A stretch of DNA of 64,000 nucleotides, taken from NCBI GenBank assembly GCA_008632985.1, contig QPGO01000055.1:62001-126000 (forward strand), written 5' to 3'. Source of the stretch: Psammoneis japonica. Taxonomy: Eukaryota. The position numbers and the translations under genes were made by a program. The notes beneath the pieces were generated by a model, which saw nothing but the letters and a program-made list of their open reading frames with translations, did not search any database and had not been told where the DNA came from. Shown here piece by piece: positions 1 through 56,881 of the stretch; position 1 is the stretch's first letter; each line of letters begins with the position of its first letter.

Positions 1-5
1 CAGTC

Positions 6-1687
6 TTGCCGTACCGCGAAGCCTGCAAGCTGCCCCACCTGCGCGTCTCACCAATGGGCGTGGTGCCGCAACGCGACCGCCGCCCGCACACCATCGTGGA
101 TTACAGTTTCTACGGTGTCAACGACGAAACCGTGAAACATGCCCCTCCGGAAGCCATGCAATTCGGTCGCGCGCTTGACAGGTTCTTGTGCAATGTCTTC
201 CGCACCAATCCGAAACACGGCCCAGTGCACATGCTGAAACTCGACCTCTCTGACGGTTTCTATCGCGTGGGGCTTCGCCCCCAGGACATGCCCAAGCTTG
301 GGGTGGCCTTCCCAGCAGGCCCGGGCGAGGAACGCTCACAGCGCTACCTCTCGTCCTGCCCATGGGCTGGACGGAGAGTCCACCTTTCTTTTGTGTTGGA
401 ACGGAGACTGCAATCGACTTGGCAAACAACCACGTGCCTGCAGCTTGGGACCCTCCGATTCATCCACTTGAACAAGCGGCAGCCACACCAGCACCCCATG
501 ACGACACCTTGCGGATCGATGTGCCGCCGCCTTCTAATGCAGCCCCAGCTAGCCGCGTCTCACGCCTTCCTTCGCCCGCCGCTCTTCGTCGCAGACGCCA
601 ACGCGGCTCCCAGCCATTGGAGTGCTTCGATGTCTACGCAGACGATGAGATGTGCGCGGCACAAGGTTCAAAAGCGCGTCTCAACAAGTTACGTCGTCGC
701 CTCCTGCATGTCAATGACCAAGTCTTCCGTCCCAACACAACTGCCGATGCACACTGGCGCCGCGAAACTATCTCACTGAAGAAACTCCTCAAAGGAGACG
801 CGTCGTGGTCAATGGTCAAGGTCATTTTGGGCTGGCTCATTGACACCCCAGCGGGTGCCATGCAATTGCTGCCGCATCGACGACAACGCCTCCTGGACAC
901 ACTTGCCGACACCATCCCGCACCGCCGCGTGTCAAACAAGCATTGCCATAAACTCATTGGCGAAGCACGCAGCATGTTGTTGGCGGTTTCTGGCGGTGCC
1001 GGCCTGCTCTCCAATCTCCAGCACTCGCCAGCCACCTCAAGTGACTCCCGCACTCGGATCAACCGTCATGCGCGCCGTCAACTCCAAGACTTGCACGCCC
1101 TGGCCGTCGACATTGCTTCTCGTCCCACAAGGCTTGCCGAGCCATTCCCTGCCGCCGACGGGCACCACTGCGGTGCATGCGATGCCGCCAAGCCAGGTTT
1201 TGGTGGCGTGTTGTCACCAGGCCCCAGTGACGACTTCCCTCCTACAGCATGGCAAGTTCCGCTACCACCGGACCTGCAGGCCGCCATTGTTTCGGACGAC
1301 AACCCCGCTGGAACAATGACCAACTCCGATCTCGAGCTAGCCGGCACAGTGCTTCAAGAAGCCGTCGTCGGCATCGCCATCGATGTCAGGGAACGCACGG
1401 TCCACATGTGCTGTGACAACACCCCGGCCATCTCTCGGCGCGGAAAAGGCTCTGTCACCACCGACGGTCCCGGCGCCGACATGTTGCGGACCGGCAGTCT
1501 CCAACAACGAAAACTCCGACACATCTCCCGCTTCCATTGCATGCCTGGTCCAGCCAATCTCCTCGCCGACATGTGCTCCCGGAAATTCACCACACCCTCT
1601 CACCTCCTTGCAACTCTCACTCGCCTTGCTCCACAGACGAAACCTTGGCAAATGCTTCACCCGCGCCCGACATCGTTTCTTCACTGA
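6..1687 (+). pseudogene. Reverse transcriptase-RNase H of the YR retroelement (frameshift near 340-362)
   Basis: SPMGVVPQ, KLDLSDGFYR, (LP)MGWTESP, VYADD, CDAA..GFGG, NSDLELAG, CDN, PG.AN.LAD..SR motifs spread over ORFs 6..779 and 362..1687. Confidence 0.85.
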
Positions 1688-2819
1688 TCTCCGCCTTGCG
1701 ACGGCAAAGGCCCGCGAAGCTGTCACTGCTGAGCGAGCCCGTGCCACGGACACCGTCTGGGCCAAGTGCTGGTTGCCTTTCTTGTCCGACATCGGAATCG
1801 ACAACCCTCTCCTCACCAGCGTCCAAGACAAAATCCCAATGCTCTGAGTCTTTGCCCATCGCCTTGGGGATGGATGCCTCAGCCGCAGCGGTGACCCAAT
1901 CTCAGCTCCGCATGTTCGTGACGAAGTCCTTCACGTCGCGGAGACGTTCACCGAACTGGGTGCCCCGGACCCGCGTCCAATGCCACACGGCATGATGGAC
2001 CCTCGCCTCACTCGCCTGTGCAGTGCATGCTCAAAAGACGATCCACCTCCGAACCGAGTCAAGCCTCTCCCGATTCAAACAGTGCACCACGCACAAGCCC
2101 TCGTCGATGAATCTTCCGCGCTCGACAACGCTGTCATCGACATGTCCTGGATTGGCCTCTTCTATCTCTTGCGACCTGGCGAGCATTGCAAAAGCAAGGA
2201 CAATGACCCCTTGGCACTAGCTGACATCAAACTGCTCGTCGGACAACGAGCTCTCGACCACTTGACCTGTCCCTTGCGACACCTCTTCCTCGCTGCACAC
2301 AGCAGCATCACCTTCGACACCCAGAAGAACCGGGAGTGCGGTGAGACGGCAGGTCACGCCTGAAGCTCCCACTCAAAAGCCTGCCCGGTTCTCGCCATCG
2401 CTCGCCATGTACACTGTCTACGTTCGAACGGCGCCAATGCTAACACCCCCCTGTGTGCCATGCGCCTCGGCACGCGTTGGGGTCATGTCACCAGCCGCGC
2501 CATTGCCAAGATGCTCCAAGTGTCGGCTGCCGCCCTGCCACACCTCGGATTCCTGCCAAAAGACGTCACAGCCCGCAGCCTCCGCGCCAGTGGCGCCATG
2601 GCCCTGCTGTGCGCCAAAGCAGACACCGACATCATCCGTCTCGTCGGCCGTTGGAAATCCGACGCTGTGTTTCGATGCCTTCACGCTCAAGCGTTGCCAC
2701 CAATCGCAGGACTCTCCACCAAGATCCTGAACTGCAGAAATTTCACGTTGCTCCCGGGGTCCGATGTCCCCCCCGTTGCGCAAAACATCATCAATCAAGC
2801 CGAAGCACCCGCCAACTGA
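1683..2819 (+). pseudogene. Tyrosine recombinase with two in-frame TGA stops (1845, 2361) and the catalytic Tyr replaced by Cys
   Basis: LFYLLRPGE(H), FDTQKN, RSLRASGA, GRWKSDAVFR(C); ORFs 1383.., 1980.. and 2460.. share one frame. Confidence 0.85.
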
Positions 2820-2932
2820 CGAGTGCACGACTTCACCCACCCTCAGCTCCGCTTCTGGCCCATCCCCTTCTTCCTTGTCGGCCCTCCAAGAGTGGCGGAT
2901 CGGAGGCGGTCTCGGTTGCGGGTGAGCCTGTG

Positions 2933-3028
2933 GAGGGCAAGAAACCCTGGTAAAGCGCTGACACCACCAACTGCCACCTCCCAACTACAGTGGGACGCAC
3001 CCCCCAGCAGCATTGGTGGCGAACAGCC
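2933..3028 (+). repeat. Direct repeat copy 1 (96 bp) of the YR element
   Basis: Aligns without gaps to 3437-3532. Confidence 0.9.
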
Positions 3029-3144
3029 GTTTTGGCAGCGCAGGGGGAAGGACAGACGCACCCACCTCCCAACGCACGCAGCCTTGAACGACCTGAATGC
3101 CAGCGGCATTCTTTGCAACTCGTCGCCACCTGTCGAGGCCGCAG

Positions 3145-3532: not shown

Positions 3533-3870
3533 ATGAGTGGTCAATGAATGAAGGGTGAAGATTGAGAGTTCGCAAAAGAGCTCGCGCCAGGGAAAATTCA
3601 AAATTTCAAAATGAAAAGAGTAAAAATTCAAAATGACAAAATCGGATTGGATTTTTCCAAACTTTGGGGCAACGACAGACGCGGCATGACATCGAAAAGA
3701 AAATCTGAAATTGAATGATGATTGATGCCATGGCACCACGCCGTCGTCTCTCTACCGGTAGATACAAAGGCATATCGAGCAATCAACGGCGACATTAACT
3801 CATCACGAGAAATGAACCTTTCAAAATGACCAGATGTCTGAGTCAAATTTCACCGCAATGTCGCAAAAGG

Positions 3871-5433
3871 ATGCTAAAAGTATTTTCAATCCTTTGCTTT
3901 TTTGCTCTCATTGAGAAGGCGAGAGCTTTCTCGCATGGCGAATGCTTTACACATCAACCGAGGCCATTTCTCACAACTCTTCGAAATGATCTGAAAATTT
4001 ACACAAAAGTTCAGAGGACCGGTTGCTCGTATCTCTGTGCTACTACAAAAAACTCAAAGAATAACGAAAACAGAGACAAAACAACCTTATTCGGTTTTCC
4101 AAGAGAAACAGTTGCTACACCTCTCGCAATTCTATTGACATCACAGTTTATTCTATTTATTGGCGTCGGAGCAGTGATTCCATCGATTCCACTCTATGGT
4201 AAAGAGATTGGTTTGAGCAGCGCTGCCAATGGTGTGGTCATTTCAGCTCCGGCGGTGGCACTCTTGCTTTGTGCCAAACTCGGAGGGAACTTTGCAGACA
4301 AGGCACGAAAGCCTGCCATGTTGATTGGAATGGCTGTGATTGCCGCATCCGATGTCGGGACAGCCTTGTCGACTGGAATGGTGACTCTTGTTCTTGCTCG
4401 TTTGGGATTGGGGCTCGGACGGTGTGTTTCGGAAGCCGGAGAGCGGGGCATGCTTGCCGACTTGGCTGGACAAGCACCGGATTTGCGGGGGAGAGCGTTG
4501 GCGGCGCAACAAGCTGTTGTAGCACTTGGAATTGCGATTGGAGCGCCATTGGGTGGGATGGTTGTAGAAACATACGGACCGAGAGCCTCCTTTCTTTGCG
4601 TGAGCGCCGCAGCAATAGTTACACTTTTGTTGTATCTGCTGTTACCTGAGACTGTAGCTTTTGTAGTAAACGGTGTTGGTGTAACAGAAGAGGACTCGAG
4701 CACGGCTCGTACAGAAGCGGCACTGCTGGTTCCAGCAGAAGCAGTGGACACAACTCGAGAAACGTCCTCTTCTGGTGAATGGCAAGAGTTGCTCTCGAAA
4801 CAACAATGGAGGGGGCTCGCGCTCTGTCAGTGTGGCACCAGCTTTGGTTTTGCGGCAAAAATTTCAAGTATACCAGTTCTTGCCACTGCAACATTACCGG
4901 GAGGTGCCACTGGCGCCGGTGCACTTCTCTCGGCTGCGGGCCTAAGTGGTCTCGTCGGTGCACCAATCGGAGGTTGGCTAACAGATCGAACCAGTGCAAA
5001 GGCAACCGCAGTTGTCAGCGGTATGGTCAGTGCGGCAGGGCTTCTTCTCATTCCAGCTTCACTTGGTCTGTCTCCAGACAAAGATGGAGGCATGGCCTTT
5101 GATATACTTGGCGGAAGCATGGGAGCTCAGGCACTGGCATTCTCCGCTGTTGTGTTGTTGTGGAGTCTTGGAGCATCTGCACAAGGACCGGCTCTGACAG
5201 CCCTTGCACAGGAACTCGCTCCTCCCGGGGCCGAGGCAACAGCCATGGCGCTTCCACGGGCTGCTGGAGATGGCACCTATATTGTTGCTCCCTTTTTACT
5301 TGGGGTTGCGACAGACGTATTTGTTGGTACACCCGGCGTCGAATGTGCTGCGGCAGGCTGCATGATGCTCGTTGGAATTCTTGCACTCTTTCTGCTCAAA
5401 GACGATAACTCCATTGATGACAGAATGGGTTGA
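3871..5433 (+). CDS. Major facilitator superfamily transporter, probably plastid-targeted
   Basis: Many hydrophobic segments, motif-A-like GGNFADKARK and GGWLTDRTSAK; N-terminus MLKVFSILCFFALIEKARA-F resembles a signal peptide followed by Phe. Confidence 0.85.
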   Translation: MLKVFSILCFFALIEKARAFSHGECFTHQPRPFLTTLRNDLKIYTKVQRTGCSYLCATTKNSKNNENRDKTTLFGFPRETVATPLAILLTSQFILFIGVGAVIPSIPLYGKEIGLSSAANGVVISAPAVALLLCAKLGGNFADKARKPAMLIGMAVIAASDVGTALSTGMVTLVLARLGLGLGRCVSEAGERGMLADLAGQAPDLRGRALAAQQAVVALGIAIGAPLGGMVVETYGPRASFLCVSAAAIVTLLLYLLLPETVAFVVNGVGVTEEDSSTARTEAALLVPAEAVDTTRETSSSGEWQELLSKQQWRGLALCQCGTSFGFAAKISSIPVLATATLPGGATGAGALLSAAGLSGLVGAPIGGWLTDRTSAKATAVVSGMVSAAGLLLIPASLGLSPDKDGGMAFDILGGSMGAQALAFSAVVLLWSLGASAQGPALTALAQELAPPGAEATAMALPRAAGDGTYIVAPFLLGVATDVFVGTPGVECAAAGCMMLVGILALFLLKDDNSIDDRMG

Positions 5434-5879
5434 CGAACCGACAGGAGTCCGGTCTGACTTGCATCGAAACAACTCGGGGCACTCAGGCCTAGAGGACACC
5501 CTCAAGTCTCGACGTCTTCAACATAAGAACGCTACTTAAAAATTTAGAACCCTGGCTAAGCTATATACTCGCCAGGTCGACTTGTAAATGAAGTACTTTT
5601 TGTGGTGGCTCTTGAAGGAGTCGAAAGGGGTAAAGGGCGCCCATAAGCCTCTCGTCTTGATGGCTACGGGTTGCTGCTACAGCACCTGCGCATTTCTTCT
5701 TTGCGTTAAGATTGATGCACTTGAAAGTTCGCGCAATCAAGCATACAGATCGAAGTCTGCCGCGCTGTCGTACCAGTGTGAGGCATGTCACGAACGTGAT
5801 TATACATGTAAATGTCACGTTGACATGCCCTGTCTGAGCAACAGTGCTGAAGATTCTGTGGGGCCTTGCCAGATTGTAC

Positions 5880-8800
5880 AAACAAAGACGAGGCACACAA
5901 AGTCCGTGTTCATCTTCATGTCGATCCACACTCGCATCTGAGGTCAAGAACAGCATGACGAGCCATGTGATGAATTCCCCACAGCCAAACAACCAGTTTC
6001 TTCCATCTTCTTTCTTTGCTTCAGAGTTCAAACTTGGTCATCCCACATGTTGTCCTTGTTGTGATGTTGTTGGCACAAGGACAGAATTTCAACTTTTTTC
6101 CGTGATGCACCAGGTCCTTTTTGCTTGCATCTTTTCATGTTCCTCGTCATTTTAGATCTTTTTGTGCAATGGTGTTCTTCAGGGAAAAGCAGTGCACAAA
6201 CCACGCCATTTTCACTTCATGAATCACTTGGCTCTGGCCATCAATGTGACCAATGGCATCAGTGTTCTCTTCAAATTGGCAATGGAGTTGCATGGCACAA
6301 GTGTGGAAGGCGGTGAAACAGTGCTGCAAGATGAGTCAGCTCAAAGATTGCTGCCCAGACATGCTTCAATGAGGTTGAATGAAATGCACAACAAAAAGAT
6401 GTGGCCAAGTGAAGGTTGTGACAATGACTGAAAGCCCCAAAATCACCACAGTGTCAAATTGAAGTGTGGCATGAAGTCAAAGTGTGTCTTGTGTTGGCGC
6501 CATTTTCAGCTGCAAGAAAAAGAGCAGAGAGCAAGCCAGAACAATGCTCAGCCCTCAGCTGCACATTGTGGACACTGGGTGGGACTTTCAACTTGACCAG
6601 AGCTTGATGCTGCAGTGCATCTTTGCAATTCCATCCAAAGTCTGCTGTGCCACATTTTTCAGATCACTTTTCCATCCATTTTTTGTTGGGGGGGGGTCCT
6701 CTGGCTGATGCCAAAACAACACTTCAATCTGCAAATTGCCATGGTGCGGACTGCAGAGGCATGGGCAAAAGATGCCACAGCTGTGGTGGGGCCATGAACG
6801 CCAGCCCTGCAGTGACCCTTGAGCCTTCTGACTTCATCAGCAGCACTGGGTTGGGTGGCGCTGAGCCTTGAGAAGTCAAAAACAGGGGCCTTTTCCCAGT
6901 GCCAAAAACAAAACAGCTCTCAACCACAGCATGTCAAGCTCAATGAAGCTGCCCACCCAAAGCTTTTGCAATGCTTGAGAAAAGGCATCTTGGTTGCTTG
7001 AATGTCGCGATTTGTTGGTCATGTTGCAGTGCACCCAAAGCAGATTTTGCTCACATTGGCAGCAACAAGAACTGCTGCACCATCTCCACCAGTTTCTGGT
7101 TTTGTCCTTTGTCCAAGTGCAGCAAGACAAGCCAAGGATGCAAGTCTTTTCCACAGTGCCAGAGCCACTGGGAGACTCAAGAGGGCACGTCAAGGATGCT
7201 GACTGGGCACAAAGGTGGGAGAATGTCAGCATCTCAAACAAATCAAGGCCAACCTTCCAACTTTTCACATTTTTGTGCTCATGGAAGGCAGGCAGTGCTG
7301 CTCTTCAGAGGCACCCATGTGTTGGAGCTGTTGATGGTCACCCATCTCTTGTCAAGAAGCACGTGGTTGTGAATCTCCTTCTGAAGTTGCTTTTTTCCAA
7401 ACTTTGATGACCAGCCAACAGGCAACCACATGCCAGCAGAGAAGTCAGGTGGCTGCACTTTTTTGGTTGTCCTGCAAAAGGGCAGCAAGACAACATTGCC
7501 AATGCCAGGAACATTTTGTCAACACTTGCTGCAAAATCATGGGCAAAATCAGTGCTGCGTGCCAAAGCCAAGAGGAAAAGCTGTGGCCTCTTGGTGAAAA
7601 GGCATGAGTGGAAGCTGATGCTGGTGGCAGAGGCGCATGTGTTCCTTGCGGTGGCAGCATGACATGAGCTTTTGTGTCTGGAGGATGCAGCAACAGCAGG
7701 TGCAAGAAATTGGTTGGCAATGAGTGTTGAAAAGTTGGTGGCTGGGAGTTTGGCAAGGTTGGTGCCAAAACAGTGGAGGAGAAACATGTCTGGTTTTCAT
7801 TCTTGTGTGGTGTTGAGCAACCTGGGCAAGGTTGCCATGGAGTCATGACAAGCCAGAGAGATTTTGTGCAACAATCTGGGAGTGGATGATGTTTGTGCTT
7901 TTTTTCTGTTTTGACTGCAAACAGGTCAGCTGATGATGTTGTGCCTGCAGACACAGTGCTGCATCATGAGCGCCAGCATTGCCACCAACTTTGACAGCTC
8001 ACATCATCTGTCTGGATGTGAGCATCACATTGCTGTTTCCATCACTGGGTGTTGCTGTGCATGGCAAGGATGATGATGCCACACATGAAATTTGGAGCTT
8101 TGGTGGCTGGCAAAACAAGGGCACTGTGCACCAGCCAGTTGGGCACATGTCAAAATCAGCCAAACAACAATCCAAAGTTTTCCATTTTCTGTTTGCCAGT
8201 GGCTTGCATGCTGTTGCACACCTGCAATGTTCGTGCTGTTCCTCTGCCAGCTGACCATCTGGCCACTGGTTGACCAGATGCAGGAGCTTCTTCAGCTTGC
8301 ACTTCTCTTTCACTGAAAAATCTTTCTTTTCCTCCTGCAGCATGAACTGTTGCAAACACATGTGTCAGCCTCAAGTCTCTTGAGTGCCAGTGCCTCTCCC
8401 ACCCTCACAGCTGTGCTGCATCAGTGTGTGTGGCTTTTGCAGTGTGGGGGCACATTTTTGCATTTTTCTCCTGTGCTTCCAGCCACGTGTGAATCTCCAA
8501 GCCGTGTGCACAAAACAACATTTGTGTGATTTTGACATGGTCGCTGACTTGCAGATTCATCCAGATGTCCATGCTCTGTTGTGTTTTTTTTTTTTTGTGT
8601 GATCAAAGTTTTTCGTGGCGACAAATGAGCGGCAACACAACGGGCGATGTTGAAGATTTGAACACATCAAATGTTTGTGTGTGCCAGCATGAAATGTTTG
8701 CTTGCAATGTCATTCAGAAGGCATTCTGCCTGCAAAGACTTCACTGGATCTAATGGGCTGTTGTGAGGACTCTTTGGCGCAACCGAAAAAAAATGTTTGA

Positions 8801-9290
8801 CTGCACCCACACTCCTGAAACACTTGCAAAAGCCCACCTGCACAAGCATCTTTCATGAGAATGCTGCACACATGAAGAACGCTCAATTTTTGCTCAAAAG
8901 AGGTTGTTGTTTTGTGCATTGCCTGGGGCTGGAGCGTGTCGCTCGCCGTCTTTGCAGCACTGATCTGTGTCATCATGTGTGCCGCTGTGCCGCACAGCAG
9001 GCCAGCGCGCCAATGATTGGCGTGGTGCTTGGTTTGCTCTGCATGCCTGATGGCAGATGGTTTGTTGCACAGTGTCTTTTGTCACACCTCAATCTCTTGT
9101 TGCAGGCAGGGCCAAGGTGCTTCATTTTCACAGGGAGCGAAGTCCTCTGACGAAAAAGTTGGCTGACAAGTGGCAAGGAAAAAGTGCAGCGGCTGTCATT
9201 GCAGCACTGCTTGCGCCTTCGACTGTGTGATTGATGTGTGACCACTGTGACACAACATGTGTCTCACAGCATTGTTGATGAGACGTGTGG
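5880..9290. other. TpA- and CpG-depleted degenerate block, probable old transposon relic (family not recognised)
   Basis: Almost no TA and few CG, excess TG/CA, many short Cys/His-rich spurious ORFs; boundaries approximate. Confidence 0.6.
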
Positions 9291-10698: not shown

Positions 10699-10939
10699 TT
10701 TATTACCATCGCCCTCTCACCATACATCTATACACAAAACTGTAAATACCTAAAAGGAGAAAATGCCACTTGCAGCGTTGGTGCCATGCCAAACTTCATA
10801 GCATATAGCAGAAGGTAGCGCGAAATGAGTCGGCACCAGCGACGGTTTCAATTGATGGAGTATGCACTTTTCAGACAAGATAACTTCGTCTTACCTCATA
10901 AGCCGTCGTGACCAGCGGAAGCATCCAGTGCTTTTACTC

Positions 10940-13487: not shown

Positions 13488-13520
13488 CTCCCTCTCAAGA
13501 GCCAATGCAGCGTTGTTTCC

Positions 13521-19075: not shown

Positions 19076-19088
19076 GGCACAACCAACT

Positions 19089-46100: not shown

Positions 46101-49100
46101 TCAGAGGCATTTCTAGACCAGAGGTGCATCGCCACGGCAAATGACCCAGTTGACAAAATGGTGGACAAAATCTGTGCTGCACTCCTCTGGATGAATGACA
46201 ATGTCGACACCCATGAGTTCTGTCCCAATTTAATGGAACAATGGTGCAAGGTGGCGTGCGATGCTTGGGCAGACCGGGGAGCAGATTTCAGTGAGATTTG
46301 TCTCATGTTGGTGCTGCAATGTCTGGTGCCAGCCGGTGTCGCAGTGAAGGACCATGCAAGACTGAACAACATTGTGCATCCTGTCTTCAATTCTGGAGCT
46401 GCCGCACAACTGGGGCACATCAAACTGGAAGAAAGGCCGCTCATGGCTGCACCAAAGGATGTCATCAGAGACAGGAACCAAAGAACACAGTTGGAACAAA
46501 ACTGAGCACAAACTGTGTGAGAACAAAACTGAGCACAAACTGTGTGAGAATTCCGACAACCGCTGCGCCTGCATTTTTGATCATGTGTTCCGTGGACCCT
46601 GTTCAGGACAAGACCTGTTTGCCTTCTCTCCCTCCAACCAGCATCTCCGCAAGCCACATGGGTCAACCGAGTGTGAAATTTTGGAGTGTGTTGACAACGA
46701 CCCCAACATTTGCAAATCACAAGACAATCCAGAAGCAAGCTCATTGGTGTGTGAATCAGCCAGGTGCTTGGGCAGCTCTGTTTTCTTCTGTGCGTGACGG
46801 ACCTGTGGCAGACAATGAACTGCACTCATTGTTGCCGGATGGCAGCAGCCTTTCCTCTGCACATGATGGAACAGTGGCAGCCAATGAACTCAACTCCTTG
46901 TCAGAGAATGGCACCAGTGTTGCCTCTGCAAGTGATGGACTTGCGGCAGACAATGAACCAAGCTCATTGTCTTTGGAGGACTGCTCATGTCATGATTCTG
47001 AATGCCATGTTCCAATTGTCACGGTAGATTCAGGGAGCATTCAGTCGCCTGAACAAGAATCTGATGGAGATGATTCATGTGACGACACCATGTGTGATCC
47101 ACCCAAGCCACCAGTCCTTTCACAAGCACAAGATTTGGACTTGGATGATTGTGTGAGTGCCATTTTTGTGCAAGTCTATGAACCGCCAAAGAACTCCTTC
47201 AATGTTTCAGTGGCTTGTTTTGCACAAAACGTTGTCTTGGAGATGACTCATGCAGTGCTTTTGTTTCACATCATCATGTCATCACCAGACAAGATGGAGG
47301 TCCAAATGTCCTGTGGCTTTGCATGATGAGGCCCGTCAATGCAGGAAATCTGTCCTTGGATGATCTTTGTTCGGACCGTGGCGTGGAGGCCATCCGATCC
47401 ACACAGCAAAGAAGAGATGAGGCAAGGTGCCAAGTCATGAAGGATCTCAACACAAACTCAAATGTTTGGGCTTGCACCATGTCCCCACAGGATGGAAGTG
47501 CCACACATCACTTAAATTGCAACATTTCTGCAAAGGATTTCGTCAAACGCGTCAAGTCACGATTTGGAAGAGAGATTGATTTTAAGACCAGTGGGTTTGT
47601 TCACATTTGCATGGACTGCTGCTGGATGCAAAAAGTGGAGTGGCAGAACACCACATTTGGAAAACGCTTCTTTCGTGAAAATCTAAAAGAGGTGATGGAT
47701 GTGTTGTTTCATCTGAAGCTTGAGAGGTGCCACGTGATGGTCCCATGCACCATGTGGTCACTGACCCAAGTCGCACAAAATTTGGAATGCATGGAAGAAC
47801 ATGCACTGGTGCTGGGTGTCACAGAAGAGATGGCATGTGGCAAAGTGATGACTCACCAGGCTTCCCAGGAAATCATCAAGCAGAGCCAGGGGGACTGCCT
47901 GGGCAAACCGTCTGACCAGGAAGCATTGCATTTGGGAGCCACAGAACAGGAAATTTGGGAAACACTCCCAGATGCAGAAGCCAAAGCAGTCCCAGATTTC
48001 CTCTGCCATTGTGGTGGTCACAATCCAAAGGAACCATTCATGTTCCTGTCCTTTGAGAGGAGAATGCCCAATTGGATGGGTGAGGTTGGCAGATGGCCTT
48101 GCAGTTTTTTGGTCACGCAGTTCCTTGTCAGTTTTGTGCGCAGTTTCTTGAAGTGGGTGAGTGATCATTGTCTCTGTTGTTGTCTCTGTTGTCCAGATTG
48201 TGTGTTTGCTGCAGGTGTGGGCCACTCACATGTTTTCACACACTCTTGTGAAACAGCTCTCTCAATGTGTTTCTGTGGTCTTGAGCTGCTCAAACATGCT
48301 TTGTCCTCTCGTGTGTCTCCGCAATGCCGGGTTGCTCCTCATGCACCAACAACTTGTCACCAACGGCGTTGATTGGCACCAAGCGAAGCTTTGGTGAGCA
48401 CACTGTCAGTTCAGAAGTGGACAAATCATTGTTTTTCACTTGAGTGTGGCTGCACTTGACACTGCTGCACCCTTGTTTGCTGAAGTCATGTTGACAGAGA
48501 ACAAAGCCGAGGAGATGCGCGGTCAGAAGAAACTGGCAGTGAGAGGAAGGGGAACAAAGAAGAAGAAGAAGAATGATCAGATGGCGGATGAAGAAACGTT
48601 CCTGGCAACTTGGGAGGAGGAGACAGTGACAAGAATTGTGAAGGACAAGTGCAAGAACAAGGAATTGCGTGCTCAACACCACAACATGGAGAAAGAAGGC
48701 AGAGTCAGGTGAGACGAAGGCACCCGGTCTGACTGCAGTGAGCAATGAGGCTCTGGGGATGTTGACATTGGAAAGCTGCTGGAAGAGTTGGGAGCACAAG
48801 GCCCACCATGAAACGACTGTTGGAGCAGGGGGGGGGGGGGGGGGCTCAGACAAAGAGGATGAGGAAGAGTTGGAACCAACACCCAAGTGCGCAGATCCGA
48901 CAAGGCAGCAAGACTCCTGGAAGGATGAAGGGACATTGCGATTCAACAAACTGCTTGCAAAAGTGAAGGAAGACAGGTCGAGTGAGGAAGGCATGCAGTT
49001 TGACACGTGGCACAGCAAAGACAAGAAAAGGAAGAGTGACAAAAGAGGTGAGTGAGCAAAAAGGAAGAAAAAGCTGGTGGGGAAGGAGGCAAGAACACAG

Positions 49101-49250
49101 GCAATGTTAGAGCTTTCAAGTGACAACAAGGAGAACAAGGAAGAGGCAACAGACAAAAACAGAGGTGACAAGGACAGCAAAGAAGAGGGTGAAGAAAGTG
49201 AAGAGGGAAGCAAAAAGAATGTAGATTCAGACAATGGGCAAGCTGTGGCA
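43160..49250 (+). pseudogene. Series of degenerate ORFs of a large unclassified element
   Basis: Long co-oriented ORF remnants (43595, 44936, 45951, 46298, 47215, 48440-49250) with acidic tracts and SNEALGMLTLE..W..W.DEG..RFN.L..VK.DR. Confidence 0.4.
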
Positions 49251-50440
49251 TGAAAAGGTGGCAGAGCCTTTTGTTTGTGTGAGAATGGAAAGCGGACAAG
49301 CAATGCATTGGTGTTCATTGTAAACAGTTACAGTGTGGTGATGCAGCATTTCAGTGATCATTGTTGCATGATCTGAGCCATCAATTGGCAACCAGTGTTT
49401 GCAATGGAGCTTTCCTCAAACCCATGAAATGCAGTGATCAGCAGCAATTTGTTGTTCAAAAGAAGTTTTGAACATCACAGTGAAAAGGTAAAAAGGGATG
49501 GCATTCTGAAGGTGGAATGAGTGGAACACATGCAGTCAAGGGTTGGATCCCATGGGAAAAGGTGGGTTCCAATGGTGAAAAATTCCAAACTGCAATGTTT
49601 GACAAAACATCACCATGTGCACAAACTGTCAAGGTTTCAAACATTGATGTTTGGCACCATGACAGCATCAAAAATCACTCATGAGAAAGGTGGTCAGGAT
49701 TGCCACAATGCGCACTCTGATGTTGTTGTGCATGCTAGAAGCAACAGTTTGAACAGCTCCAAATGAGAGCGGGCAAATGCTGCACTTGGACGGCATGATC
49801 TCCCATTTGTCAGGACCAGCCCCAATTGTCAGAGCTGAAGAGTTTTTCACATGGACACAATCAGAAAGCACGTCCACTCCTTTCTTGACATGGCGCAACA
49901 AAACAGCAGCAAGAGGTTGCTTCGCGGCATCCCTGAGTGACATTCCTGGTGGCACTGCCACCAACATCAGTGCAAGATTGTTCTGCTTGCCCAGAATTTA
50001 GAAGTGCCCCAACTTGCAATCAATTCTTGCCATCAAATTCTTCAATGAACCAATCAGCAACAAGATCAAGGAACAGATTTTGCTGTTTGGTGGTTGTGAG
50101 CCCATCCTGATCATTCCAGCAATGAACAAGGTGAAACACAGGGCCAGTCTTCCAGCTTCCAGGATCTTTTGTGGTCAACTCACTCAACTTTGTACAAGCT
50201 TGTGGGCATGTCTGGGGATCAATTGCAGTTTGGAGACTTTGGTTGTGCCAATTTCTGGAGACATCCTTCTTTGAACAATGTTTGTCCATTGAATTGACAA
50301 ACCTGTTGACCTGAAGAGACACCTTCAACTGGACAGAAGAATCATTTGCTTGAGGGGTGCTGCCACCAATGGAAGACTCAGCCAACCCTTGTCTGTTCTT
50401 GGTGGCTGCTGTGGCTGATGCATCCATTGCAGTTGCGCCG

Positions 50441-50721
50441 ATTGTGTGCTTGTGTTTGCGCAGCAAATGCACTCCAGAGAGGGGGCCAATGTTGGTTGCC
50501 ATAAAATGGTGTTGATGAACAGAGGCAGCCTCCAAGGCAGTTCCAGATGACAAATGCAACGCATTGAGCATCGCAACAAACAAACCAAAACAGGAGTGCA
50601 AACAGTGCGCTGATTGCACACTTGTGTTTGTGCAACAAATGCACTCAAGAGAGGGGGGCAACACCAGTTTCCACAAAATGGTGTGGATGAACAGAGGCAG
50701 TCTCCAAGGCAGCTCCAGATG
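50441..50721 (+). repeat. Degenerate direct repeat (about 108 bp x2)
   Basis: 50441-50549 vs 50613-50721. Confidence 0.75.
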
Positions 50722-52206
50722 CTTGACAGCACAAAACAGCAAGCATTGCAAAACAAGGTCAAGATGGTGGCAACTGTTGTTCTGAAACCATTGCGGGTTG
50801 AACATGTGAGTTTGGCAGAAATTCAGAACAAGCAAGTGCAAAGCAACTGAAAAATGAGGCATGAGAAGCAACTGGAAAAAAGCATGTGGGCAGTGTCTTG
50901 CATGGACCACAACACTCAAAATCAATGCTCCAAATTCCAAACAAGAAAATGCAAAGAGATGGTGTCACCTGTGATCACAATGACTGTGCAGAGCCGCAAT
51001 CACACTGTGATGACAATGACATGACTTTCAAATGAAAGGAGCAGATGGCTCCATGCAACTGTCATGGCAAAGAAGGGGTTGGGGAGTGGTGGCAGCAGTG
51101 TGCTGCATTGTGGCAGAGGTTCTGTGTTGAGCGTTTGTGTGTGCAGATCACCGCACATGTGGAGGTCAGCAGCAATCAACATGCAGCAAGAACAGTGCCA
51201 AATGTGAGCTGATGCTTTTCCTCCAATGACAAAATGTGTGCCTTTGTGATTGGAGAAATGCACTCATGTTGCAATTTCATTGCATCATTGAAACATTTGA
51301 TGATTGCCGAAAGGCAAAAAAAGTGAGCTCTGCCAGGTGGAGACAAATTTGTCTGGTGCTAAAAATTGCATAAAAAATCTCAGGTGATGGATCTCTCATC
51401 ACCTGGAGCTGCAACAGGCCATGTGTCTGCACAGACTGGATGTCCACTCCAGCTCAACACCCTGCTGTGGAGGCTGTTGTGAGCCAAGTGGGTGCCCGCC
51501 TTGTTCCACTGACCATCAATTGCTTGGGAGCACCTGGTCACTTTGCCCGCTGCCTGCCATTTGGTGCCTGCCAACACTGTCCCATCCTTTCCCCCCTGCT
51601 CTGCCCTGGACATCCGAGTCTTCTTTTCAGCACACAGCTGCTCACAATGCTGCAAACACCTGCTTGCAATGCTTGCCCCCAGGGACCTTCCCAGCTGCCA
51701 CTGCAGCACAGAAAAATGCACTGTCAAAATGTCCTGCTCTTCAGCCTCACCTGTCACACCACCGTGCCACTCCGGTGGAGCCTCCAAAGCCTCAGCTTTG
51801 CAGTTGCCAGGTCCCTTGCTGACCAGCTTGTGTCCTGTTGTTTGGCCAAGCTGTGCACACACCTGCCTTGCCGCAACCCCCCTCCCCACTGCCACCACCA
51901 ACCCCCCCATTTTCTGTTTGCATGGCCTGCTTTTGTCCTCATTCTGCTGTGGCACCAATCATCTGCACCGCACGCCTGGGTGATGTCGCCCATGAACTCC
52001 TCATGCACATGCACCACAGAAAGACGTTTGCTGATGAGCCACAATGAGAGCACAGCCAAAAGTCCTTCTTCACAAAACTTGTTTTGTGAGCCAGTTGGAG
52101 TTGACAAAGTGTGTCAAAATTCAAGCAACAGCTTGCATTGGCAACATCTTCAAAGCCCTCCAATTGTGCAGGTCATCAGAGAGGGGAAACGCGAGCCACC
52201 TGCATT

Positions 52207-52868
52207 GTTTTGACAGGCTGGCCTGTGCTCAATTTGTGTCAACCAGCACCCAACTGATGAAACTCAAAGGAAACCACTGCCCAGCATGTGCTGCATGCAT
52301 CACCCACACTGCAATGTGGGTGGACCGAAGTGCAGCTCCTCATGCATGCATGTGCAAATGGCAGGTTTTCTCTCCTTTTTAATGTGGGTGTGTTGCACAC
52401 AGTGTGTTTCCTCAGCATGATTTCCACACACATGATTTTCACATGCACATCACAGCAATGTCACATGATGGTGTGTGCTGACCAGAACAGCTGACACCCC
52501 ACAATTTTTGATGGCACTTTTTGCTGACATCACATTTTTTTCAACAGCAGACTTGAACATTTCAGTCTCTTTGTGGCTCACACAGTCTTTTGACAGATTG
52601 GCCTGTGCTCAATTTGTGTTGGCCAGCATTCAACTGATGAAACCCACACAGGAAGCCACTGCCCAGCACCCACCAGCATGTGCTGCACACATGACCCCCA
52701 CACTGTGACATGGGTGGACCCAAGTGCAGCTCCTCATGTTTGCATGCAAATGGCAGGCATTTCCTCCCCTTTTCAATGTGGGTGTGTTGCACACATGTGT
52801 TTTCTCAGCATGATTTCCATGCACACCAATTTCATGCACACTTTGCATCAATGTCACATGATGGTGTG
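52207..52868 (+). repeat. Degenerate direct repeat (about 275 bp x2); the spacer 52480-52588 recurs at about 53849-53938
   Basis: TTTTGACAG..TGGCCTGTGCTCAATTTGTGT... to ...AATGTCACATGATGGTGTGTG present twice. Confidence 0.8.
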
Positions 52869-54705
52869 TGTTTGTTGGGGAGTCACCCAAATGAAGGAAT
52901 TGAAGAAATTCAAGGAATGGAGGCAGAGCATCCCTCCTGCAAGCAACTGCATCCAGGTGGCTGACTGGCCATGTGGGTGCAGATTTCACAGCAATCAAAG
53001 GATGAATTCATGGTCACTTGAGCTTGAGGAGGCAGGCATCACAACATCACAGCACCCAACTGCAGCAAACAGTTTGAGCCCCCATCATCACACAATCTTC
53101 CATCTCTCCACTCCTCTCATCAATGCCATGCTGCACAAAGAAGATCATGAGATCAAGTCCCCCAAAACAAAAACAAAAGTCAACACACTGAAATGGCCAG
53201 ATTGCAGGAATGGTGGTGTGCCAGGGAATCAACTGGATGAAGGAATTCAACAAATTCAAGGAACAAACAGCAAAATGTCCCTCCTGTGAGCAGTTGTGTC
53301 CAGGTGGCTGACCAGTCATGTGGGCACAGATTTCACAGCAATTGAAACAAATTCACAGTCGCTGGAGCTCAAGGAGGTGCTCTGCTCAGTTGTCTCTCAA
53401 CTGCAGGTGGCGAAGTGCTGACAAGCACCAGTGCAGTTGTGCTGCTGTCTCTTTGGAGTGAGTGTTGAGCCGACAAGTTAATGGCTCCAAACAGGAAACA
53501 GGAATCCTGCAAGGCTTCCTGTGCTCTTGTTGTGCTTGCCTTGGCTGCTTGTGCAGCTGTGGGCTCTGGTTTGCCTGCAAAGTTGTCTGTGCAAACTTCA
53601 AACTGACAACGTGACAATGTGGTGTGAAATGATTGCATCCTCTCAACAACCCCAATGTGCCAAATGACTCACTCCACCAAAAAGAGCAAGAACAACAAAA
53701 CAGACGTGCATCAGATCAGCAACAATGCACCTTTGATCTCAGTGAGTCACCACATCCCTCACAACTGAAGAAGTTTCAACATCTTTTCTTCAACATGCAC
53801 CCGGGTCTCTTGAATTCCCACCTCACACAACTTGTCCCAACAGTGTTGACCAGGACAACTGACACCCCACATTTTTTAAGGCACTTTTTGCTGACAGCAG
53901 ACTTGAACATTTCAGTCTCTTTGTGGCTCACACAGTCATTGCCAACAGGCTGACTGAAATGACATGTGTTCAAACACCCATGTTTTTTGCTGTTCACTTG
54001 AATTTTCCATTGTGCCAATGGGGTTGCGAGCGGGGCACCATGCTGAACTCATGCACTGTTTTTTCAGCTGTTGCAGTGCCACATTTTTTTTTGCAAATTT
54101 GTGGTTTGTTGGGCTGCTGTTGGTCAGTTTTCATTGTGCAGCCATCACTTTTTGTCTCTGATGGCGGCAAGTGTCCCTGCTCCAGGATTTGCAAAGCTCT
54201 TGCAGCTTGTCTCATCTGTGCAAAAATGAGCACTGTTGCTCAAAACCTGCTTGTGCCGCCAAATGCACCAAATCTCTGCAGCTTTCTGCTGTTCACAGAG
54301 CTGCCGCGCTTCACCAAGCCATCACCGCAGCAATCTCCAGGCCAGCAGCTTTGTTTGGTGTGAAAGCAGCTCCATCATGTTCTGTCAGCCCATTCTGTCA
54401 GCCTGCATCCTTTTGGGCACATGCTGTGATGGTTCATCCCATGGCTCTCACATTTTTTGGGAGTGCAGCAGGATCTGTGCATTGGCAGAAGACTGCAAGC
54501 CTGCAAGGGTTCATCCAATGGCCCAAAATTTGGCTGGGGACACGTTCCAGCTCTAGGTGGGTCCTCTCGCACTGCTGAGCTGTCAATGGGAATCATTCAA
54601 AAATGTCACAAGAGTCACAATTGGCATTTCACATGAGGAAAAATGCCAAATCGTGCAGAAATGCACACAATGTCATGCGAGAGGGTGATTGGGGCTGCTG
54701 ACTTT

Positions 54706-54804
54706 TCGGGAACTCAATTGAAATGTCATCTGATCAAGGGTGTTTTGATTTAGATGGTGAAGAGCAACACCCTTGATCAGATGACATTTCAATTGATTTC
54801 CCGA
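54706..54804. repeat. Inverted repeat: perfect 30-bp arms (54715-54744, 54766-54795), 21-nt loop
   Basis: CAATTGAAATGTCATCTGATCAAGGGTGTT / AACACCCTTGATCAGATGACATTTCAATTG; extends a further 9 bp with one mismatch. Confidence 0.95.
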
Positions 54805-55719
54805 GGAGTTGATGTTGGAATGTGGATGGGTGGACAGACTGACAACAAATGTTTCTGGTGCTCTTCCACACAATTTCTGCGCAATGACTCTGAGAGCCGA
54901 GTGATGATTCCCATTGACATTGACAGTTTTTTGGATCGCGCCGCATGTCGCGCACGCAGATGGCTGCGTGCGACATTCTACGAAATTGTTTCACACTTCC
55001 CATTTTGCGAAGCCAAAGGCTTTCTGTTTTCAACATTTGTGACAATGAAAACATGCTGGGTGTGTTCTTCAATGTCTGCAGAACACACCCACGCCAACTG
55101 TTGTTGATGTGCTGCAAGTGTGAAGGAGGAGATGCATTCGTAAAATTGCCTCTTTTTCTGTTGGCGATCATTCATGTCATCATTGCTTGACAAATCTAAA
55201 ATGGAGCTCGCACGCAGAATTCTGCGGGCCAGATGTCACACGGAGTCCCACCTGGGATTGGAGCCCGTCTGGGGGTGCAGGTGCCAGTGTCCTCCCCCAT
55301 TTTTGCAGCACCTCCAAGAAGATGCAAGGGCCCACATCTCATGCAGCAGCTGTGCTGGCATGCCTGAAAGCATTTTTGCTTCTTTTCCTGATTTTGCTGG
55401 TGCAGCAGCACCCCCCTTGGCAGCTCCAGCAGTGGCGGTTTCTCTGGCAGCAGTGGCAGCAGGCCTGTTCCAGCTCCAGGTGATGCGCACGGGTTCGTTT
55501 CTCATCATTTGAGAAATCGTCGCATTTGGCGCAATTGGCTTTTTCAAAATCCGTTTTTTGCCAAATCGAAGGGCAAGTGCACACTTTACATGCATTTTTG
55601 GGTGCACACTTGCCTTTCGATTTTTGAAACAATCAAAATTGAAGGAGTTGTTTGCACTAAACTGCGCAGAAAATCGGCCTCTCGTGTGATGAAAATCGTC
55701 TCACCTGGAGCTGGAACAG

Positions 55720-56170
55720 GCCAGCATCGTCATCATCAGCGTTGCTGTCATCTCTGGCAGCAGAAATTTCCCTGGCAGGTTTGGCATCAGCAACAGCATC
55801 AGCAGCATCATTGGCATCATCAGCACCTGGCAGCAGTGGTTTCCCTGGCAGATTTGGCAGTGGCAGCCATGGCATTGGCATCTCTGGTGGTGGCAGCTTC
55901 CCGGGCATCATTGGCAGTGGCATTGTTGACAGCAGCATTTGCATCTCTGCCAGTGGCACCTTTCCCAACAGCATCAACAGCAGTGGCAGTGCCATCTCCT
56001 CATGTGGCAGTGGCAGTTTCCAGAGTGTCAGCAGCAGCAACAAGAGTTGCCTCTTGCTTGCAGCTGGCAGCAGTTTCCCTGGCAGAATCAGCAGTGGCAA
56101 CAGTGGCAGCAGCAGTGTCATTTCCATCTCTGCCAGTGGCATTTTCCCTGGTGGCATTAACAGCATGAGT
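55720..56170 (+). repeat. Low-complexity minisatellite (GGCAGCAGT / TTTCCCTGGCA units)
   Basis: Recurring CAGCAGTGGCAG and TTTCCCTGG motifs. Confidence 0.75.
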
Positions 56171-56881
56171 TGGAGATGCTTCCTTGTCAAATTTGTTGAA
56201 TTTGTAGTCAAGAAGCAGTTTCAGTCCAAGCTTTAATGTGCAATTGATGGACCAAGACAGAAACGTTAACGCTCCTAAACGAACAATGATTCTTGTTGGT
56301 TTCGATATAACAGGGGCAATCGTAGAACGGATCGATTGCCAATCCTACAGTGCATGGCTTACACGCTTCAGCAAGCTTACATTATGATCTTTTCAACAAG
56401 TTCCTCCACCGTTGCATAAGAGGGCTTTCATGCTTTCATGAGCGATTTGAAAAGTCCAACATCTTGGTTTCTTTTGATCGATTTCACCCTTCGGCCTCTG
56501 CGCGGCGCAATTGTCCACCTGACATGTGTCACTCCAATTGTTGGCTCCCAATAGAAAAGGTTGCCCTTTTGAATTTGTAGAAAATATGTGATTGCACTGG
56601 ACAACGAACCAGACCTACCGTACATCACTCGCTTGAGACCGCAGAGACCTGGATGACATTATTCATTGTTTTCCATAAACTTGCAATAATTTCATTGACA
56701 CCCTACCGTGCATAAAATTCTCTAGAGTCGAGCGGTGCTACTTGGCTTCGTATCAAATTAACTTCTCTCTGGTTTTTGTTTCTAGATATTGAAGATGCAA
56801 TGAACTAGCGGTGCATTGCGTGCATTTTATGCGGGATAGCTTGATTTTGAGTCCAGATGGCCGTTGAACGCTCCATTGTGC

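Follow-up and report, generated by a model that had tools for sequence, protein, structure and literature searches.

Loss of TpA dinucleotides from transposable elements at a diatom locus

TpA content across the window

The question raised by this diatom locus is what has removed nearly all TpA dinucleotides from parts of it. A first-pass annotation of the window, that is, the whole 64-kb stretch of DNA analysed here, described TA-poor transposons and interleaved host genes with normal TA content. Our dinucleotide counts (980 TA in total) agree with this within the 64-kb window, in which we identified the following features (O/E, observed/expected):

1..3144, plus strand: DIRS-like (tyrosine-recombinase) retroelement fragment; GC 0.60, TpA O/E 0.17, CpG O/E 0.97
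254-1684, plus strand: RT/RNase H ORF of the DIRS-like element; 2862 relatives, best E 6e-126
~1848-2816, plus strand: recombinase-like part of the DIRS-like element, from motif reading
3799..5433, plus strand: host MFS transporter gene (Pfam MFS_1, E 5e-31); best named relatives in raphid pennate diatoms
5860..9299, unstranded: block B, a relic nearly without TpA; CpG O/E 0.22, TG/CA O/E 1.8-2.0
9300..13282, unstranded: host segment flanked by two hypermutated elements; TpA O/E 0.59, CpG O/E 1.01
12013-13038, strand not given: PH-domain ORF (Pfam) in this host segment
13283..25126, minus strand: tandem copia, LTR-internal-LTR-internal-LTR (self-BLAST; Pfam RVT_2 and gag_pre-integrs)
13283-13488, 19102-19307 and 24921-25126, minus strand: copia LTRs; TpA O/E 0.65, 0.40 and 0.61
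25127..30262, unstranded: host segment; TpA O/E 0.61
~28138-29881, minus strand: expressed, spliced gene in this host segment (spliced contigs of run X2)
30263..56160, unstranded: block C, composite transposon relics, 25.9 kb; TA O/E 0.04, CpG O/E 0.24, TG/CA O/E 1.8
38507-38884, minus strand: LINE-like endonuclease trace in block C (weak Exo_endo_phos match, E 0.0012)
56161..64000, unstranded: host genes (FKBP-like, ArsM-like methyltransferase, eIF4B-like); TpA O/E 0.56

Since the ORFs of the first element had no Pfam match in the window, and a weak RVT_1 match was found in one of the five scanned relatives of ORF 254-1684, its DIRS-like class is a putative assignment from motifs (DVYADD, FHCMPG, LLRPGEH and GRWKSDAVFRCL) rather than a formal one. 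Block B had no Pfam match among the eight ORFs scanned. For most of the relics in blocks B and C, a Pfam search of 91 of the 154 ORFs of at least 90 aa gave one weak match as a guide to TE family, and an Atlas search gave none. That most of these relics are transposons is suggested by their composition, their read depth and the motifs reported in the first-pass annotation.

The TpA depletion is confirmed and is far above what chance would produce. By segment, TA O/E within this 64-kb window is 0.43-0.61 in host DNA versus 0.00-0.18 in the affected blocks. For host DNA overall it is 0.56, with a CpG O/E of 0.96, and the MFS transporter region (0.43) is an unaffected control. Over approximately 5.86-9.30 kb and 30.26-56.16 kb TpA O/E is 0.00-0.07. 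Block B has a single TA in 3146 bp (6154-9299) versus the 116 predicted from host O/E (Poisson P 7e-49) and contains the longest TA-free run, of 2598 bp (6154-8750), although its true start is at approximately 5860, not 6154. Block C (30263-56160) has 71 TA versus 970 expected (P 1e-311). The tandem copia and the DIRS-like element have TpA O/E of 0.16-0.18, with 95 TA versus 334 expected in the copia internal regions (P 6e-54) and 21 versus 68 in the DIRS-like region 1-3100 (P 2e-11). Transitions in TpA between element and host DNA are sharp, within less than 100 bp: at the edge at 30263, 26 TA in 29963-30262 give way to none in 30263-30562. TpA loss has not spread into the host segment 9300..13282, and host DNA between the blocks maintains a TA O/E of 0.47-0.86 up to the block edges. 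Among the allelic differences in the sandwiched host DNA, 11 of 19 are transversions.

Flanking bases tune the rate of loss, which is fastest at ATA/TAT and slowest at CTAG: relative to intact relatives, TA survival is 0.017 in ATAT, 0.06-0.08 in ATAN, 0.25 in GTAC, 0.40 in CTAC and 0.62 in CTAG. A 1-kb profile and the mass balance show TpA depletion paired with CpA and TpG enrichment in clusters. Lost TA and CG together balance the gained TG and CA (1992 versus 2079 in block C, 252 versus 287 in block B and 277 versus 211 in copia), which indicates that ordinary CpG decay proceeds alongside. The CpG O/E is 0.90-0.92 in the copia internal regions; in the oldest blocks CpG is strongly depleted (O/E 0.22-0.24), a point that the first-pass annotation left without emphasis, and CpG decay accounts there for over half of the surplus of TG/CA. 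Methylation-driven CpG decay works in the same elements here and yields identical products (TG/CA), but it cannot remove TpA and, in the copia pair, is ~3.3x slower per site than the TpA process.

Direction of the change and its occurrence in situ

The direction of the change can be read from tyrosine codons. Nineteen alignment columns are Tyr-conserved in 80 copia homologues, giving 38 cells in the two window copies, and here Tyr is found in 8, Cys in 19, His in 9 and Phe in 2; Cys or His thus replaces Tyr in 28 of the 38. The 80 homologues have Tyr in 1436, His in 14 and Cys in 5 of 1520 cells at the same columns, so Cys and His are not the state of intact family members. Other conserved residues of the window copies are 68-100% retained, the exception being Ile (41%), which is replaced by V, M or T. 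This Tyr-column evidence is from the copia family, the DIRS-like family having offered four columns in a noisy alignment. The degraded motifs listed in the first-pass annotation are all present: RPGEH at 2172-2186 (CAT at 2184), FRCL at 2670-2681 (TGC at 2676) and HCMPG at 1535-1549 in the DIRS-like element; EVHVDAD, GKLNCL and TESEC in both copia copies; and CHDR and AEACG on the minus strand at 33.7-36.5 kb. Their proposed ancestral state is borne out for copia, where the consensus of 32 homologues has EVYVDAD, GKLNYL and TESEY.

The two copia copies are 98.5% identical over 6025 bp (self-BLAST) and 86 of their 88 differences are transitions. In 5819 aligned bp, 24 of 69 TA sites (0.35) and 39 of 374 CpG sites (0.10) differ, whereas the differences of any kind at non-TA, non-CpG positions number eight (0.0016 per site, 0.16%), a relative divergence ~210-fold higher at TA sites than at other sites. 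A<->G and T<->C differences are therefore enriched at TpA, and only six A<->G differences lie outside TA/CpG contexts in the full 6025-bp overlap. The middle LTR has ~5 TA fewer than the outer LTRs, and on a parsimony reading LTR2 alone would carry derived TG or CA at four TA sites. Alleles of block C differ by CA<->TG double differences and by one CA<->TA difference. The TpA change occurred in situ, in the middle LTR, the tandem copies and the block C alleles. As had been proposed, TA->TG and TA->CA both occur on one coding strand (19 Cys and 9 His cells in copia), and these two outcomes together with the in situ change in the middle LTR indicate that the process acts on DNA.

Could the true sequence have TA, modified DNA having misled the sequencing, the base calling or the polishing? 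The effect is nearly all-or-none and is confined to DNA that is CpG-depleted and probably heavily modified, and both points favour such an artefact. Over the TA-free blocks, however, read-derived contigs from DNA run X1 show 0-7 differences per 0.8-2.5 kb, and thus the raw reads hold the TA-free sequence; because X1 is probably the assembly's own sample, this rules out assembly or polishing error rather than a chemistry-level artefact. Word depth in X1 over TA-free stretches, a measure of present-day copy number, is high-copy for some (550-2142) and single-copy for others (55-100), and k-mer contigs at single-copy depth (~55-65) are TA-free. The 98.5% identical copia copies disagree at single TA sites. 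Cys or His occupies 7 of 10 Tyr columns in an unrelated metagenome copia fragment (L069; TA O/E 0.22) and 7 of 19 in a database protein (P0247), a matching pattern that, with the X1 contigs, argues against an assembly artefact. An equal signature comes from Illumina reads of mutation-accumulation lines of Bigelowiella natans, according to the available text of a preprint (Mettrop et al., 2026, bioRxiv 10.64898/2026.01.13.699255). We consider an artefact extremely improbable. The probability that the elements are intrinsically TA-poor, through codon usage, selection against TA or foreign origin, and were not mutated in this genome is negligible. A mild shortage of TpA is common to most genomes and is seen in the host DNA here, but intrinsic composition is refuted by the replacement of conserved Tyr codons by Cys/His, by copies and alleles that differ exactly at TA sites, and by related copia loci from metagenomes, whose TA O/E is 0.24-0.90 and is at least 0.6 in 66 of 80. 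The hypermutation reading of the first-pass annotation is thus supported, none of its four refutation tests, on substitution context, unique DNA, intact family members and raw reads, having refuted it when run.

Bigelowiella natans and other known systems

Fungal RIP resembles the process in diatom elements in that both produce irreversible transitions at one dinucleotide, stay inside mobile or duplicated DNA with rather clear boundaries, wreck coding capacity and leave a dinucleotide-ratio signature. RIP, known from ascomycetes, depends on duplication of the sequence, on a premeiotic stage and on homologues of the RID/DIM-2 cytosine methyltransferases. RIP converts C>T at CpA, making TpA, and GC falls; here TpA is destroyed, TAY Tyr codons becoming TGY or CAY, and GC rises. 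The first reading of the locus as the opposite of RIP is therefore correct, and RIP chemistry is rejected because its direction is reversed. Editing likewise protects against nucleic acids of mobile elements or viruses in the case of APOBEC3, which acts on cDNA, and of ADAR, which acts on dsRNA. ADAR, too, prefers a 5' U, as stated in the discussion within the available text of the same preprint (10.64898/2026.01.13.699255). These enzymes use single-stranded cDNA or RNA substrates, and their C>T/G>A or A>G changes are strand-asymmetric, whereas the process described here hits resident chromosomal DNA on both strands and has a near-absolute need for a 5' T.

The first-pass annotation was aware of no description of the process in diatoms. 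A literature search found no report of TpA-specific hypermutation in diatoms, but the 2026 preprint describes, in its available text, TpA-specific T/A>C/G hypermutation of integrated viral DNA in the chlorarachniophyte B. natans (10.64898/2026.01.13.699255). In that text, the change was measured in mutation-accumulation lines, in a single-copy giant-virus insert and a virophage, in mitotically dividing cells, with a de novo rate ~1000-fold above background and activity in only some lines. The viral region is 1.8-fold TpA-depleted (Rho 0.45), reverse transcriptase and DDE domains are over-represented among its low-TpA coding sequences, and the enzyme is not identified, the authors favouring adenine deamination (10.64898/2026.01.13.699255).

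As far as the available text of the preprint extends, B. natans and the diatom share a TpA-only change that gives TpG or CpA depending on strand, a restriction to foreign or mobile DNA while the rest of the genome (for the diatom, of the 64-kb window) is normal, and a long-term trace of clustered TpA depletion with CpA and TpG enrichment. In the copia pair the divergence per site is 0.35 at TA versus 0.0016 at non-TA, non-CpG positions, AA O/E is 1.22-1.33 in all affected regions, and the CpG-type C>T component among the 86 transitions is a separate, co-occurring process. The same text indicates several differences: the host is a rhizarian in one case and a stramenopile, namely a raphid pennate diatom, in the other; the targets are a viral insert and virophage versus retrotransposons and relics; the depth is 1.8-fold versus O/E as low as 0.00-0.04; and the rate was measured directly in B. 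natans but is inferred here from paralogue and allele divergence. Borders sharp to 100 bp, a hierarchy of flanking bases, concurrent CpG decay and TpA retention in LTRs are, on the same basis, found in the diatom only. There is a strong case that the diatom is a new host for a very recently described kind of hypermutation.

Proposed process and its chemistry

A DNA-level, TE-targeted process is very probably real. TpA in TE DNA would be converted to TpG or CpA by A:T to G:C transitions on either strand, and conversion would halt no more than 100 bp from element borders and spare the flanking host DNA. The process would be much faster than 5-methyl-CpG decay in the same elements, so that in young elements ~70-85% of TpA would be gone while CpG is hardly touched, and in old relics ~96-100% of TpA and ~75% of CpG, both ending as TG/CA. 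Its targeting may work through homology, small RNA or chromatin. Mobile DNA would be inactivated irreversibly, possibly as a defence. The near-normal TpA of the copia outer LTRs (O/E 0.61-0.65) versus 0.16 in the interior is not predicted by a simple model in which the whole element is targeted, and counts against it.

The most likely chemistry, which we put forward tentatively, is enzymatic: in silenced chromatin with CpG methylation, a deaminase of the TadA/ADAT or another type, dependent on a 5' T, would turn adenine into hypoxanthine. In line with the first-pass annotation, no enzyme for the process is visible in the window, there being no deaminase gene among its scanned ORFs. Thymine chemistry is an unlikely alternative in which a TET/JBP-type dioxygenase would oxidise the T of TpA in silenced DNA to 5-hydroxymethyl- or 5-formyl-uracil, the latter mispairing with G to give T>C. 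Dinoflagellates carry 5hmU in place of much of their thymine, preferentially at TpA, and 5-formyluracil induces T>C mutations. Since the TpA site is symmetric, T>C on one strand equals A>G on the other and the present data accommodate both; nothing within the 64-kb window has a bearing on thymine chemistry, however, and in the literature consulted we found no TET/JBP-type enzyme or modified base of this kind documented for diatoms. The preprint authors, in the available text, prefer adenine deamination (10.64898/2026.01.13.699255). Pol eta-like error-prone repair had also been suggested. A polymerase of this type would be recruited when deaminated 5mC in methylated TEs undergoes mismatch or base-excision repair, and would misinsert G opposite T at WA motifs. 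The affected elements are CpG-hypermutable (0.10 per CpG versus 0.0016 elsewhere), which implies frequent T:G repair events. Pol eta prefers WA, that is, ApA as well as TpA, and is a poor fit because ApA is untouched (AA O/E 1.22-1.33); A<->G differences outside TA/CpG contexts are rare in the copia overlap, and young elements lost TpA before CpG (TA O/E 0.16-0.17, CpG 0.90-0.97). We regard it as very unlikely. Even less probable is editing of retrotransposon RNA or cDNA before integration by an ADAR-like or APOBEC-like activity, copies arriving already mutated. Borders do match element ends and most copia changes are common to both copies, but A>G and T>C both occur on the coding strand (the Cys and His cells), the middle LTR and tandem copies were still mutated at TA after formation, and same-locus alleles differ by CA<->TG pairs. 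ADAR-type hyperediting, with A>G only on the transcribed strand and acquisition before integration, is contradicted on both counts.

Returning to adenine deamination, we speculate more cautiously still that diatoms and chlorarachniophytes may share a dedicated defence enzyme system that deaminates the adenine of TpA in double-stranded DNA of silenced mobile or viral sequences until none is left. The system might date back to the ancestor of the SAR supergroup or have been passed on by gene transfer. It would amount to a targeted DNA adenine editor of natural origin ('A-RIP'), and the erasure of TpA would then be a general influence, as yet unrecognised, on how transposons decay, on GC content and on the birth of genes in major marine phytoplankton. 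tRNA adenosine deaminases act on U33-A34, and the 5' T requirement seen here may be likened to this substrate, as a resemblance.

TpA-depleted DNA and its borders

In a 1-kb dinucleotide scan of the window, the ratio of observed to expected TpA (O/E) falls to 0.00-0.10 in the stretches at 6-9 and 31-56 kb and to 0.08-0.27 in those at 1-3 and 14-25 kb, with values of 0.41-0.73 in the interleaved segments. The whole window contains 980 TA; TA is absent from 32 runs of more than 400 bp, of which that at 6154-8750, with 2598 bp, is the longest. The affected regions are:

1-3144, DIRS-like region
5860-9299, block B, a TA-poor relic (its actual start lies at about 5860)
13283-25126, tandem copia retrotransposon
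30263-56160, block C, composite TA-poor relics

Observed TA counts, counts expected from the host O/E of 0.56 (TA-normal gene-bearing segments), and Poisson P
Block B (6154-9299): observed 1; expected 116; P 7e-49
Block C (30263-56160): observed 71; expected 970; P 1e-311
Copia interiors: observed 95; expected 334; P 6e-54
DIRS-like region (1-3100): observed 21; expected 68; P 2e-11

The borders are sharp. At the left edge of block C there are 26 TA in 29963-30262 versus none in 30263-30562, and at the right edge of block B none in 9000-9299 versus 16 in 9300-9599. Host DNA lying between affected elements, at 9.3-13.3 kb and at 25.1-30.3 kb, keeps its TpA and is unaffected. Within the affected regions ApA is spared (AA O/E 1.22-1.33).

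In the TA-normal parts Pfam identified an MFS transporter, an FKBP, an ArsM-like methyltransferase and an eIF4B-like ORF, and at 13.3-24.9 kb it identified the RVT_2 and gag-pre-integrase domains of copia. Region 1-3144 carries the DIRS-type motifs DVYADD, FHCMPG, LLRPGEH and GRWKSDAVFRCL, and on this motif reading it is likely to be a DIRS-type element. Its ORF has 2862 relatives, and Pfam found a weak RVT_1 in one of the five scanned. The fragment ends at a run of 292 N (3145-3436), an assembly gap or masked stretch, with a 96-bp direct repeat on either side (copies at 2933-3028 and 3437-3532, 91.7% identical).

Pfam, applied to 91 of the 154 relic ORFs of at least 90 aa in the depleted regions, gave a single weak match, to Exo_endo_phos at 38507-38884; this LINE-type endonuclease trace is the sole family trace in blocks B and C, whose other parts are unassigned relics. 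The scan did not confirm the Sola-like element named in the first-pass annotation. Long ORFs overlap on both strands of block C, reaching 489 aa (for example 43004-44470 (-) with 43559-44338 (+)). They have no family match on either strand, and the longest, 43004-44470 (-), found no usable match in the Protein Atlas. We regard these ORFs as artefacts of the missing TAA and TAG stops. A near-continuous ORF likewise spans about 11.6 kb of copia because such stops cannot persist. In genomes of this kind TE annotation and gene prediction are misled, since Pfam fails on most relics and gene callers meet spurious long ORFs on both strands of TA-free DNA. Short direct repeats in degenerate form also cluster in block C at 52208-53940, including the pairs 52208-52477/52588-52870 (81%) and 52475-52590/53843-53940 (79%).

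Direction, context and order of the changes

The direction of change was read from conserved tyrosines. The two copia Pol ORFs of the window were aligned with 80 of the 120 listed homologues, and the 19 columns with Tyr in at least 80% of homologues were taken as Tyr columns. In these columns the 38 cells of the window copies comprise Y 8, C 19, H 9 and F 2, against Y 1436, F 54, H 14 and C 5 in the 1520 cells of the homologues. Other conserved residue types are 68-100% kept, except Ile (41%), which is replaced by V, M or T, in agreement with the expectation from ATA>ATG/ACA and T|AT>T|GT. Ancestral TAY codons have thus been turned into TGY and CAY. The first-pass annotation had read EVHVDAD, GKLNCL and TESEC as altered motifs, and in the consensus of 32 copia homologues these are indeed EVYVDAD, GKLNYL and TESEY. 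The same comparison on the DIRS-like ORF yielded only four Tyr columns in a gappy alignment, where the window residues are -, D, H and A.

The copia region is an LTR-internal-LTR-internal-LTR tandem with 206-bp LTRs, 98.5% identical over 6025 bp by self-BLAST, and it probably arose through unequal recombination between LTRs. Compared without overlap (5819 bp), the two copies have 79 differences: 24 are TA<->TG/CA, 39 are CG<->TG/CA, 8 bases belong to four TG<->CA pairs, and 8 are other changes. Divergence per site is 0.35 at TA, 0.10 at CpG and 0.0016 elsewhere, so that divergence at TA is about 210 times that of ordinary sites and 3.3 times that of CpG.

Whether a TA has survived in the copia interior, judged against 66 intact relatives from metagenomes, depends on the flanking bases. 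The survival values are roughly fitted by a multiplicative per-strand model, according to our own arithmetic. Strand choice was scored on 28 TA events, with three events in the middle LTR counted twice, and on these the preferences at the -2 and +1 bases are inseparable. The old blocks retain 72 TA, mostly in TTAA (21), CTAA (14) and CTAC (14).

Survival of TA in the copia interior by flanking context
ATAT: 0.017
ATAN: 0.06-0.08
TTAA (2 sites): 0.07
CTAA, GTAA: 0.20-0.21
GTAC: 0.25
CTAC: 0.40
CTAG: 0.62

The copia interiors, with a TA O/E of 0.16, lie far below the LTRs, which have values of 0.65 (outer, 13283-13488), 0.40 (middle, 19102-19307) and 0.61 (outer, 24921-25126). The middle LTR has about five TA fewer than the outer two. 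By parsimony on the three LTR sequences it has a derived TG or CA at four TA sites; at one more site each LTR is distinct (TA, CA, TG), and one site runs the opposite way or is a parallel hit. We infer that the mutational action is weaker within about 200 bp of an element edge and that the middle LTR has been catching up since the tandem formed. However, blocks B and C are depleted right up to their own edges, which leaves the LTR pattern partly unexplained.

Losses of TA and CG balance gains of TG and CA in block C (1992 lost, 2079 gained), block B (252 and 287) and copia (277 and 211), and therefore two processes yield one product, TG/CA. The young elements have a TA O/E of 0.16-0.17 with CpG at 0.90-0.97, the old blocks a TA O/E of 0.00-0.04 with CpG at 0.22-0.24. 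This indicates that TpA erasure comes first and goes to completion, and that CpG decay follows later. Differences between the window and contigs derived from sequencing reads were found at 180 places, 40 of them listed. The 21 listed allelic or strain differences in block C comprise 11 of CpG type, one of TA type, two CA<->TG pairs and five others; in the adjoining host DNA, 11 of the 19 listed differences are transversions.

Sequencing run X1 bears the label 'DNA?', has Logan contigs of up to 315 kb and a single-copy word depth of about 55-65, and contains 0.89 of the sampled words of 4500-14400. Its contigs carry the block C sequence: 815 bp with no differences, 2052 bp with 7, 2528 bp with 7 and two gaps, and 755 bp with one and one gap. 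As X1 may be the source sample, this read-level check for an artefact rules out assembly or polishing error only.

Mechanism and comparison with known systems

Our data demonstrate that a process specific to TpA operates on resident chromosomal DNA. It hits both strands, stays within sequence derived from TEs and outpaces 5mC decay. The first-pass annotation had proposed a TpA -> TpG/CpA hypermutation of repeats as a 'reverse-RIP', and this reading is supported: the finding is real, striking and was correctly interpreted. The comparison implied by that name is apt, in that the chemistry is opposite to that of fungal RIP. To our knowledge, defences of the RIP type, which mutate mobile DNA for good, were before 2026 essentially fungal and always cytosine-based. 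The proposed distinction from CpG decay is also borne out, because CpG decay does not remove TpA; as the sole cause it is rejected. ADAR-type RNA editing is rejected because both strands are hit and the changes arise in situ. Pol eta-like repair, put forward in the same annotation, fits poorly because its WA motif includes ApA, which is spared.

The best candidate for the chemistry would be adenine deamination by an enzyme requiring a 5' T. tRNA adenosine deaminases have a U33-A34 substrate that resembles this requirement, although the presence of ADAT2/3 proves nothing, since as far as we know all eukaryotes have them. Less probably, thymine oxidation (5hmU/5fU) may be the chemistry, as it yields an identical symmetric signature. 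Whichever of the two applies, the findings indicate that adenine (or thymine) is edited within chromosomal DNA, and such an activity is relevant to base-editing technology. Targeting would track a silencing signal whose limits are sharp; small RNA, homology and a bounded chromatin domain are examples. Heterochromatin that spreads diffusely would not yield limits so sharp.

The same signature is already described in a 2026 preprint on a rhizarian alga, so the phenomenon is not categorically new. Of the 302 nuclear point mutations found across 15 Bigelowiella natans mutation-accumulation lines, 231 lay in an integrated giant-virus region and a virophage region; all but one of these were A>G/T>C, and those GC-biased changes were all at TpA (Mettrop et al., 10.64898/2026.01.13.699255). 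Each generation saw about 6e-7 such mutations per site, in some lines only. In that genome, windows poor in TpA and rich in CpA+TpG form 124 clusters, RT and DDE domains are over-represented in low-TpA coding sequences, and the agent proposed is an ADAT2-like DNA adenine deaminase (10.64898/2026.01.13.699255). The diatom case matches every sequence-level defining feature and differs in host lineage, target class and degree of completion; sharp borders and co-occurring CpG decay are features of the diatom case. The B. natans signature thus recurs in diatom transposons, pushed nearly to completion.

The first-pass annotation knew of no description of the phenomenon in diatoms, and it appears to be undescribed there: the openly accessible literature searched contained no account of TpA hypermutation in diatoms. 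Diatoms belong to a different supergroup branch from the rhizarian alga and are among the most important primary producers. The still-mutating young copia copies, sharp borders and hierarchy of flanking bases make this a much stronger substrate for studying targeting.

Restriction of the process to one species is unlikely; it probably extends more widely. A metagenome contig of 1143 bp (L069), related to copia over 312-1142, has a TA O/E of 0.22 and C or H at 7 of 10 covered Tyr columns, and a database protein of a related copia family (P0247) has C or H at 7 of 19. From this pattern the same hypermutation seems to be present in other environmental organisms, and the two sequences, from data sets other than X1, independently support the signature against an artefact. 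The remaining seven loci tested have C or H at 0-1 Tyr columns; metagenome contig L046 has low TA (0.34) yet C or H at just 1 of 10.

Host genes beside the depleted DNA

The best named relatives of the MFS gene in a homologue search are from Seminavis, Pseudo-nitzschia, Fistulifera, Nitzschia, Amphora and Cylindrotheca (55-64% identity). The Protein Atlas left this gene ambiguous between Chlorophyta and Bacillariophyta; the homologue search decides for a raphid pennate diatom. No RNA run was found for the stretch searched. Contigs of run X2 omit 28960-29058 and 29603-29693, which have GT..AG ends on the minus strand. X2 is therefore cDNA-like, and the host gene at 28138-29881 (-) is an expressed gene with two short introns. 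Cover by X2 is limited to host genes within 26-30 kb, and its lack of cover over 30-46 kb is not evidence of silence. Over host DNA at 29087-29835 an X1 contig and the window disagree at 13 of 749 positions, many of them transversions, which points to either a diploid of high heterozygosity or the presence of a second strain.

The ArsM-like SAM methyltransferase (59312-60193 (-)) is intronless. Its named relatives are all bacterial (Planctomycetes, Verrucomicrobia, Hydrogenedentes; 60-63% identity), its best unnamed match reaches 82%, and it may represent an old horizontal transfer into diatoms.
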